Shown: positions 7,630-8,543 of the stretch, in pieces | Layout of the letters: every line of letters begins with the position of its first letter | Position numbering within the stretch: position 1 is the first letter of the stretch | Origin: Phoronis australis | Taxonomy: Eukaryota > Animalia > Phoronida | NCBI GenBank assembly: GCA_002633005.1 | Contig: NMRA01000063.1 | Coordinates: forward strand, 124,001 to 188,000 | Reading direction: 5' to 3' | Length of the DNA: 64,000 bases | Position numbers and translations under genes: made by a program | Notes under the pieces: generated by a model | Told to the model about the DNA's origin: nothing | The model's database searches: none | What the model saw: the letters and a program-made list of their open reading frames with translations, nothing else

Positions 7630-7791
7630 GGCAGACCTGTTCTCATCTGTAATGAGCGCGACGAGGAGACAGAGGCTCACTCCACTCACTGCCTACAGGT
7701 GCCGCACACGGTCGATTGTCTCCAGGGATTACTTACCGTCATCCCCATGCAGCTGTTGTCTATGCATATTGCCGTTCTACGGAAACTGGAT
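7630..7791 (+). CDS. GFPT: GFPT duplicated penultimate exon, copy D1 (probable mutually exclusive alternative)
   Basis: ttttAG / GTAAGC. 162 nt, no stops. [54 protein letters not shown]. Confidence 0.88.
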
Positions 7792-7829
7792 GTAAGCCGG
7801 TGGCAGACACCAGAGGCTGGTGGCAACAA

Positions 7830-8315
7830 GTCATCGATGCACATACTCTTGAAACATGGCATTCAGTGTTTACAAATACAATCTTTTTGATGTAATGAAT
7901 TCATACAGAAAACCAGTGTAGACCAGTATAGACCATTGTAGACCAGTGTAGACCAGTATAGACCATTGTAGACCAGTGTAGACCAGTATAGACCATTGTA
8001 GACCAGTATAGACCAGTATAGACCATTGTAGACCAGTGTAGACCAATGTAGACCAGTGTACTGGTCTATGGAGTGCTTTGGCGGTTTCAATTTTTACCTC
8101 TTTTTCTCCAATTGTCTTTTTTTTGAAGTGATCATAAACGTTCTGAAAATTGTAAATTTTGGCTAGTTAACAAACCCCACCAGAACTAGTAGTTTTAATT
8201 GCTTAACATGTATAAAACAAACATTAATGGAGTCAATTAAAACTTATTTTTTGTGATATTAATGCTTCTCTTGAAGTTACTGGAGTCAAAAATTCAAGAG
8301 TATGTGCGTGGTGGC
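7830..8315 (+). promoter_or_regulatory. Predicted long-range intronic RNA duplex between GFPT exons D1 and D2
   Basis: GCACATACTCTTGAA (7839-7853) is the exact reverse complement of TTCAAGAGTATGTGC (8293-8307). It extends to 7830-7853 : 8293-8315 with G-U pairs and one bulged G. Confidence 0.7.
7912..8060. repeat. 10-bp tandem repeat with 30-bp higher-order structure between exons D1 and D2
   Basis: GACCAGTGTA/GACCAGTATA/GACCATTGTA, about 15 units. Confidence 0.95.
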
Positions 8316-8381
8316 AAACTGTCAATACTTGTTCAGGATGACGTGTGTTAATCATTGTTTAATTCTTGTTCGCTGTTCCAG

Positions 8382-8543
8382 GGACGTCCAATCATTGTGT
8401 GTAACACGGGCGATAGTGAGACGGAGGCACATGCCTACAAGTTTATTGATGTGCCTCACACCGTTGACTGTCTCCAGGGTCTTCTTACTGTTATTCCAAT
8501 GCAGCTGCTTAGCTTCCATATTGCTGTACTGCGCGGATATGAT
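8382..8543 (+). CDS. GFPT: GFPT duplicated penultimate exon, copy D2 (canonical RGYD end)
   Basis: ttccAG / GTAAGA. 162 nt. [54 protein letters not shown]. Confidence 0.94.

Follow-up and report, generated by a model that had tools for sequence, protein, structure and literature searches.

A pair of tandem, mutually exclusive exons at the end of the isomerase domain of GFAT in Phoronis australis and other lophotrochozoans

The window analyzed here (the whole stretch of 64,000 nucleotides from Phoronis australis contig NMRA01000063.1, positions 124,001 to 188,000 of the forward strand) carries, on its + strand, the 3′ portion of a GFAT gene, the remaining gene lying upstream of the window. Two tandem exons of this gene, named D1 and D2, are each joined in RNA to the same flanking exons, and no joint linking D1 to D2 was listed. 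They agree in length and phase, have intact splice sites and common flanks, and are conserved in other animals, as is characteristic of mutually exclusive tandem duplicated exons. The enzyme determines how much flux enters UDP-GlcNAc and, through it, glycosylation and the chitin that occurs in chaetae, the radula, and the shell matrix. The explanation that we favor, and that we consider reasonably probable as a whole, is that of an old exon pair, an RBFOX-selected D2, and two enzymes differing at the hinge of the C-loop: the gene would splice in one of two tandem 162-nt exons, RBFOX binding just past D2 would select D2 in muscle or nerve, and the swapped helix and cap residues (human F658, V662, G665, and Y666) would alter the closure of the C-loop (residues 670–681) over the sugar site.

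Structure and splicing of the exon pair

The locus was identified as GFAT by the match of D2 to human GFAT-1 (E 6e-19) and by the tail exon with the C-loop and the catalytic lysine that follows. The 54-residue D1 and D2 pieces, searched alone, gave no Pfam hit; in relatives, both D1 and D2 isoforms contain the GATase domains. Among the matches listed, the constitutive exons of the window were closest to lophotrochozoan proteins, with 88 of 99 residues matching Liolophura GFAT. All exons lie on the + strand. The first coding exon in the window, from the isomerase domain, is constitutive (1502..1629) and was located by tblastn and by the joint 1628>3561 (cut +1), which had 32, 25, and 88 reads in RNA runs X2, X3, and X4. 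It is followed by a constitutive coding exon at 3562..3690 (tblastn and RNA joints) and by a constitutive 39-nt exon at 4316..4354 (joint 3690>4316), which joins D1 (7630..7791) or D2 (8382..8543). The last coding exon (13968..14017) encodes the C-loop VDCPRNLAKSVTVE, including the catalytic lysine, and carries the stop at 14010–14012. A 3′ UTR exon at 14747..15500, whose end is the limit of the region aligned, is connected to it by the joint 14015>14745 (cut +2; 50, 30, and 56 reads in X2, X3, and X4).

D1 and D2 were first recognized in an annotation made from the letters alone, and its description of two intact 162-nt, phase 0-0 exons was confirmed: both copies are preceded by AG and followed by GTAAG, and they are identical at 39 of 54 residues and at 102 of 162 nucleotides. 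The silent differences that it had reported in the block of residues 24–44 were likewise found, in 12 of 21 codons and including a TCT/AGC pair. No third copy of the exon was detected by tblastn within the window. Four-fold sites are saturated between D1 and D2 (4 of 19 identical; pS 0.79, pN 0.24), which excludes a recent duplication; a recent gene conversion between the two was rejected on the same ground, and an old one may have occurred. The earlier proposal of an old duplication with purifying selection on both copies was supported, and the duplication extends across Lophotrochozoa. D1 has changed faster than D2 (pN 0.23–0.27 vs. 0.12–0.26, each against four loci).

Splicing was examined in three raw-read runs of one study (X2, X3, and X4; about 18–19% of each run was read) and in contigs of a second study (X1), all under the same species label. 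The four junctions predicted by the first-pass annotation were used in all three raw-read runs: 4354>7630 (17, 5, and 24 reads in X2, X3, and X4), 4354>8382 (28, 21, and 44), 7791>13968 (24, 11, and 5), and 8543>13968 (15, 11, and 30). D1 was thus joined by 46 reads upstream and 40 downstream. Spliced X1 contigs were found for D1 (depth 39.3) and for D2 (66.4), so that both forms are present in all four runs. The share of D1 was 0.49, 0.33, and 0.28 in X2, X3, and X4; for the 3′ joints the runs differed in this share (p 1e-4), for the 5′ joints they did not (p 0.24), with mates that are not independent. As had been anticipated, no D1-to-D2 joint was listed for the region 7430–8930; the listing threshold (three reads at two starts) leaves room for up to two such reads per run, as against 40 D1 3′ joints, and makes this a loose limit. 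The joint 4354>13968, which would skip both exons, was absent from the best 15 of 20 joints. Loose read ends at all four edges of D1 and D2 matched the common flanking exons with an agreement of 0.97–1.0. No variant was listed in D1, and the sole exonic one, at 8435 in D2, is synonymous. In run X4, depth dropped from 38 to 12 across D1, and its 3′ joint had 5 reads compared with 24 at the 5′ joint, without intron read-through; this is possibly a library bias.

Several other features of the window were recorded. The intron before D1 contains a 1.9-kb element (5416–7305) with 17-bp perfect terminal inverted repeats and no clear target-site duplication, and variant reads on both strands suggest that it belongs to a repeat family. 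Intronic tandem repeat arrays occupy 4442–4760, 7912–8071, 10790–11290, and 12581–12811; repeat copies at 4491–4706 are 85% complementary over 27 nt to 7401–7427, upstream of D1. A gene of the MOB1/phocein family (Pfam PF03637) has its exons on the minus strand at 20519–29341, tail to tail with GFAT.

Distribution and ancestry of the two exon classes

Of the three outcomes that the first-pass annotation had named as refuting it, none was observed: all three raw-read runs contained spliced D1, a D1-to-D2 joint was missing from the listing, and D1, far from being disabled or absent, has intact counterparts in many relatives. RefSeq isoforms of equal length that differ solely in this segment occur in Lingula, two Haliotis species (H. 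cracherodii XP_071106424/5), Pomacea (XP_025094986/994), and Crassostrea angulata, and Lingula has three versions of the exon (XP_013402658 to 660). The isoform pairs of Pecten and Magallana are 97 and 96% identical overall. Named D1-type proteins among the 120 matches listed came from molluscs, annelids, and a brachiopod. Octopus had D1 in both of its two listed isoforms, and the nemertean Tubulanus had D2 in all three. In four GenBank gene models, from Ridgeia, Pinctada, and two Elysia species, the two copies follow each other, which we read as gene prediction errors that expose the pair.

Both exons, with AG and GT sites, were present in four of 80 metagenome loci (L010, L031, L060, and L079), the D1 class coming first in all four. 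The remaining loci comprised 20 complete ones with D1 only, which resemble a Helobdella protein and are mutually related and therefore not independent, three with a D2-type exon only, 15 that were mRNA-like, and 38 that were incomplete. The Helobdella-like D1-only loci form two paralogue groups: 12 complete loci (the L002–L027 group) in which only the canonical tail was found, and eight (L039, L051–L053, L056, L058, L066, and L078) with the alternative tail only (see below). Taken together, the sequences suggest that the pair probably dates back to the ancestor that annelids, molluscs, and brachiopods have in common.

In Aplysia (P0187/P0278), Nucella (P0098/P0279), and Liolophura (P0145/P0140), the D1 and D2 types lie on separate paralogues that are 79, 83, and 69% identical, respectively, an arrangement that may have arisen when the gene duplicated and each copy then lost a different exon. 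The proteins of these three genera were left out of the count of same-locus pairs, and those of Aplysia and Nucella served as class labels in the residue comparison. A two-copy protein of Acipenser was rejected as an exon pair: its copies are identical and each is accompanied by its preceding exon, so that it looks like a gene-level repeat. Capitella P0291 has a chimeric-looking segment with a D1-like start and a D2-like end, attributable to a gene-model error or to conversion.

Comparison of 13 D1, 13 D2, and 11 outgroup rows separated two residue classes. Position 45 is M or L in all 13 D1 rows and F or Y in all D2 and outgroup rows (13/13 and 11/11); position 49 is E, Q, or T in every D1 row and V in all others; position 52 is K or N in 11 of 13 D1 rows and G in the 24 others. 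Pairwise conservation was higher for D2 (75%) than for D1 (66%). The first-pass annotation had placed the differences at residues 4–23 and at the end of the exon: the second part stood, since the sites diagnostic across phyla are mostly at the end (45, 49, 52, and 53), and the emphasis on residues 4–23 did not. Its list of differences had also omitted M45 vs. F45, the best separator of the exon classes across phyla. Human and arthropod GFAT have the D2 pattern (F45, V49, and G52). Since human GFAT-1 is of this type, it is highly likely, judging from these alignments, that D2 (F45, V49, G52, and Y53 in the window) is the ancestral form and D1 the derived default. A third version in Lingula (among P0143, P0229, and P0233) combines Y45 with T49, N52, and L53.

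D1 of the window is a mosaic. It has M45, K52, and L53 of the putatively derived class together with D2-like R2, V28, V37, and V49; residues E15, A16, and L34 are common to it and the D2 of the window, E15 and L34 each being rare (5 of 183 segments). The other M/L45 segments among these 183 had a polar residue at position 49 in 56 of 56 cases. Its profile score favored D2 over the segment as a whole (−11.8) and D1 solely at positions 45–54 (+3.5), and its identity to D2 (72%) exceeds that of 13 other same-species pairs (54–69%). All this would fit a D1 that arose separately as a later duplicate of D2, or as a partly converted copy, and regained M45, K52, and L53; the third copy in Lingula indicates that re-duplication happens. 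We nevertheless regard such an origin as improbable, because the exon agrees in position and order with the D1 of all four related genomic loci and carries three D1-class residues, and because saturated synonymous sites exclude a recent event. An earlier tree had placed it outside the D1 branch (94/88); a larger tree grouped it within the D1 class (SH-aLRT 89, not starred). The Elysia D1 rows were omitted from the trees since their gene models are broken at the start. The D1 of the window is therefore likely, though no more firmly than 54 alignment columns allow, orthologous to the common D1 class, and an old partial conversion or parallel change in a common protein context would explain its mosaic composition.

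Candidate determinants of exon choice

A TGCATG hexamer, a candidate RBFOX site, lies at 8551..8556 (+ strand), 8 nt past the D2 donor. The same hexamer follows the D2 donor within 49 nt in three of the four related two-exon loci, at 30, 49, and 41 nt in L031, L060, and L079, and is missing in L010; within 100 nt after D1 it was found in none of the five loci. It was the sole hexamer common to four of five loci in any of the six regions scanned. In random windows TGCATG reached this recurrence in 0 of 20,000 draws and any hexamer did so in 2.3% of them, figures that are post hoc, the motif having been noticed before testing, and that include two close relatives (L031 and L060). Among single-exon loci, the motif was present in three of 40 of D1 type and in none of four of D2 type. 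As described in PMC10514471, RBFOX recognizes (U)GCAUG and acts as an activator of an exon when bound in the intron after it; in vertebrates it is enriched in muscle and in neurons, and exon 9 of human GFPT1 is among the exons that it drives. The hexamer after D2 and the action of RBFOX on the mammalian GFPT1 muscle exon suggest that D2 is likely favored in muscle or nerve. By this analogy, and assuming that the tissue pattern of vertebrate RBFOX also applies to these animals, we hold it slightly more probable than the opposite that RBFOX, through the TGCATG behind D2, promotes this exon in tissues rich in RBFOX.

The middle intron of the window also contains a predicted 23-bp stem, 15 bp of it perfect, with its 5′ arm at 7830..7853 and its 3′ arm at 8293..8315 (+ strand), 66 nt before the D2 acceptor. 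A perfect stem of 15 bp was reached by one of 2000 shuffles, and the longest among 105 tiles of the window had 14 bp. The predicted pairing probability is near 1, with −34.6 kcal/mol vs. −20.5 kcal/mol for the best competing partner, and the stem would loop out about 440 of the 590 nt of the intron. RNA structure or splice-site competition rather than RBFOX might accordingly set the choice, with similar ratios in most tissues; the presence of both forms in all four runs and the lack of TGCATG after D2 in L010 would also agree with such a mechanism. Its probability appears low to us, since the stem is missing in all four related two-exon loci (longest stem 9–12 bp), the fold of the whole intron has a z of −1.23, there is no near competitor, and TGCATG alone is common to four of the five loci. 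With only 9–12 bp in the other loci, the stem could be at most a local aid, and it is doubtful, on these folding predictions, that it helps to keep D1 from splicing to D2 in this species.

Other mechanisms of exclusion were rejected. Steric exclusion does not fit middle introns of 590–1415 nt with an AG-free zone of 16–64 nt before D2 (5/5 loci); U2/U12 incompatibility does not fit GT-AG introns with GTAAG donors (5/5 loci); and exclusion enforced by NMD does not fit exons that are a multiple of three and in frame (5/5 loci). In Drosophila Dscam1 and other docking/selector clusters, mutually exclusive duplicated exons have introns between them whose length goes beyond what steric exclusion alone could explain. 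GFAT differs from such clusters in having just two or three copies, without conserved or competing stems in the five loci, and a docking/selector RNA cluster was discarded since one stem was found, in the window only, with neither a competitor nor common intronic blocks across the five loci. Conserved intronic blocks were limited to scattered matches of 13–18 nt among these loci. A hairpin over the D1 donor was inconsistent (z −4.5 in L079, −0.5 in the window, and 0.6 in two others), and QKI-type and UG-rich motifs after D2 were not common to the loci.

Position in the enzyme, known systems, and meaning

The D1/D2 segment aligned to residues 620–673 of a His6-tagged human GFAT-1 construct, equivalent to 614–667 in the untagged protein, the tag being inserted after Gly299 (PMC7000685). 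It codes for the last strands and the helix of the isomerase domain, directly before the catalytic C-loop (670–681), which begins two residues after the segment. The same structural report gives residues 376–474, 558, 561, 577, and 676 for the sugar phosphate and 310–463 for UDP-GlcNAc, and describes the C-loop as covering the sugar pocket (PMC7000685); none of the contact residues published there falls within the exon segment, so that any effect of the exon swap would be indirect. The C-loop mediates domain contact (PMC8041777) and helps to form the ammonia channel (PMC3224219, PMC7948480).

A predicted structure of the Haliotis D1 form has in this segment a strand, a short helix, a strand, a long helix (29–50), and then coil (51–54), with pLDDT of 81–94, and its isomerase domain agrees with the human one (TMt 0.88–0.91); the full-length model, with a pTM of 0.51, wrong domain packing, and a low-confidence C-tail, was used for secondary structure only. 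Positions 45 and 49 lie one turn apart on the predicted helix, and 52–53 cap it. This placement makes an effect on packing and on the hinge into the C-loop likely as far as the model goes. That the swapped residues change C-loop closure, and thereby turnover, ammonia channelling, or UDP-GlcNAc feedback, has in our view an even chance of being correct. The D1-type enzyme likely suffices by itself, given 20 complete loci with D1 alone, and it is very probable that both isoforms are active enzymes. As the earlier annotation had suggested, they may differ in kinetics, feedback, or tissue specificity.

The pair could also be real and old and yet yield enzymes that are biochemically nearly equivalent, the class residues being drift that was fixed early; both exons would then be retained since each is in use and has to fold. 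The lack of ligand residues in the exon fits this reading, as do the D1-only loci, Octopus with D1, and Tubulanus with D2, which show that each form is sufficient by itself. In human GFAT-1, a C-tail lock mutant had normal kinetics and retained feedback (PMC8041777), which points the same way and counts against a large effect. We judge near-equivalence to be unlikely all the same, since positions 45, 49, and 52 are class-specific across three phyla despite saturated synonymous sites, and all 11 outgroup rows have G52 and F/Y45, both of which are changed in D1. That D1 is a decaying pseudo-exon or an assembly artifact has a negligible probability, for its faster change than D2 is outweighed by 46 upstream and 40 downstream junction reads, a spliced contig in the second study, and the lack of any variant listed for D1.

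In relatives, a second switch was observed at the C-terminus. An alternative last exon takes the place of the catalytic C-loop in many isoforms of molluscs and annelids and, in a more distant version, in Lingula isoform X4; the C-tail that it encodes retains the lysine and is without the terminal VTVE. Examples are L060 (9997–10600), L013, L048, and L057, and the proteins P0105, P0144, P0152, P0161, P0230, and P0265. In L060 the exon for the alternative tail comes after the canonical stop exon; three mRNA-like loci have the alternative tail 70–90 nt past the start of the canonical one. A search of the window for such an exon gave nothing beyond chance, the best non-canonical score being 33 (at a site, 8788, that lacks an AG) and the background 32. 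An intron (14018–14746) follows right after the stop in the window, and the next exon has four codons to a stop in the frame of the tail; since it codes for no alternative tail, this tail has likely been lost here, and the intron after the stop is likely a relic of the alternative-tail arrangement. The alternative C-tail may matter more for catalysis than D1/D2.

Equal-length homologous exons of which one is included at a time are also known from PKM (exons 9/10) and KHK (exons 3A/3C); these are ancient and tune one region of a protein that is otherwise unchanged. D1 and D2 resemble the equally ancient substitutions derived from tandem exon duplication, with equal-length homologous exons used one at a time, that are described by Martinez-Gomez et al. 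(PMC9741552, PMC8373072); GFPT and GFAT are absent from the main text of PMC9741552. A close likeness is that of coq-2 exons 6a/6e of helminths, molluscs, and annelids (Tan et al., 2020, PMC7434440), likewise tandem, homologous, mutually exclusive exons of a metabolic enzyme, in which one exon corresponds to the pan-eukaryotic form, the other being specific to a clade, and a few residue switches are fixed, one of them Phe to Leu. In coq-2, however, the switch residues are near the substrates and the change of product has been shown genetically (PMC7434440), whereas the GFAT class residues are outside known ligand sites. Human GFAT-1 structures are of the D2 type only.

Mammalian GFPT1 exon 9 (GFPT1-L) offers a splice isoform of the same enzyme, with an intronic UGCAUG downstream of the regulated exon, and in this muscle isoform the Vmax is about halved and the Ki for UDP-GlcNAc is lower by a factor of five (PMC10514471). 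Exon 9 is, however, a mammal-confined 54-bp cassette insertion (PMC10514471), as opposed to a 162-nt substituted duplicate at the end of the isomerase domain. Since exon 9 and D1/D2 are not homologous, any likeness would be convergent. A broader reading, speculative and in our opinion rather unlikely to hold in full, is that an RBFOX-controlled GFAT switch evolved in lophotrochozoans independently of that in mammals and far earlier: muscle and nerve would keep D2, chitin- or mucus-secreting tissues would use D1 with a re-tuned hinge and weaker UDP-GlcNAc feedback, the swap of C-loop exons would give up to four enzymes per gene, and some duplicate genes would since have split the forms between them.

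No report of this exon pair was found in the literature searched, which was mostly outside subscription journals; a genome-wide supplementary table may list the event. The words exon, mollusc, annelid, and invertebrate do not appear in a 2025 GFAT review (PMC12847842). The pair is thus apparently undescribed in that literature, though its isoforms are implicit in automated RefSeq models.

The pair would explain four over-long GenBank gene models, and expression or cloning work on mollusc GFAT may mix isoforms. Natural variants of the C-loop hinge are supplied for the study of domain coupling in GFAT. An exon switch of three phyla with fixed class residues suggests a tuning of GFAT unseen in arthropod and vertebrate models, and animals with the pair likely have two tissue-tuned versions of the enzyme.
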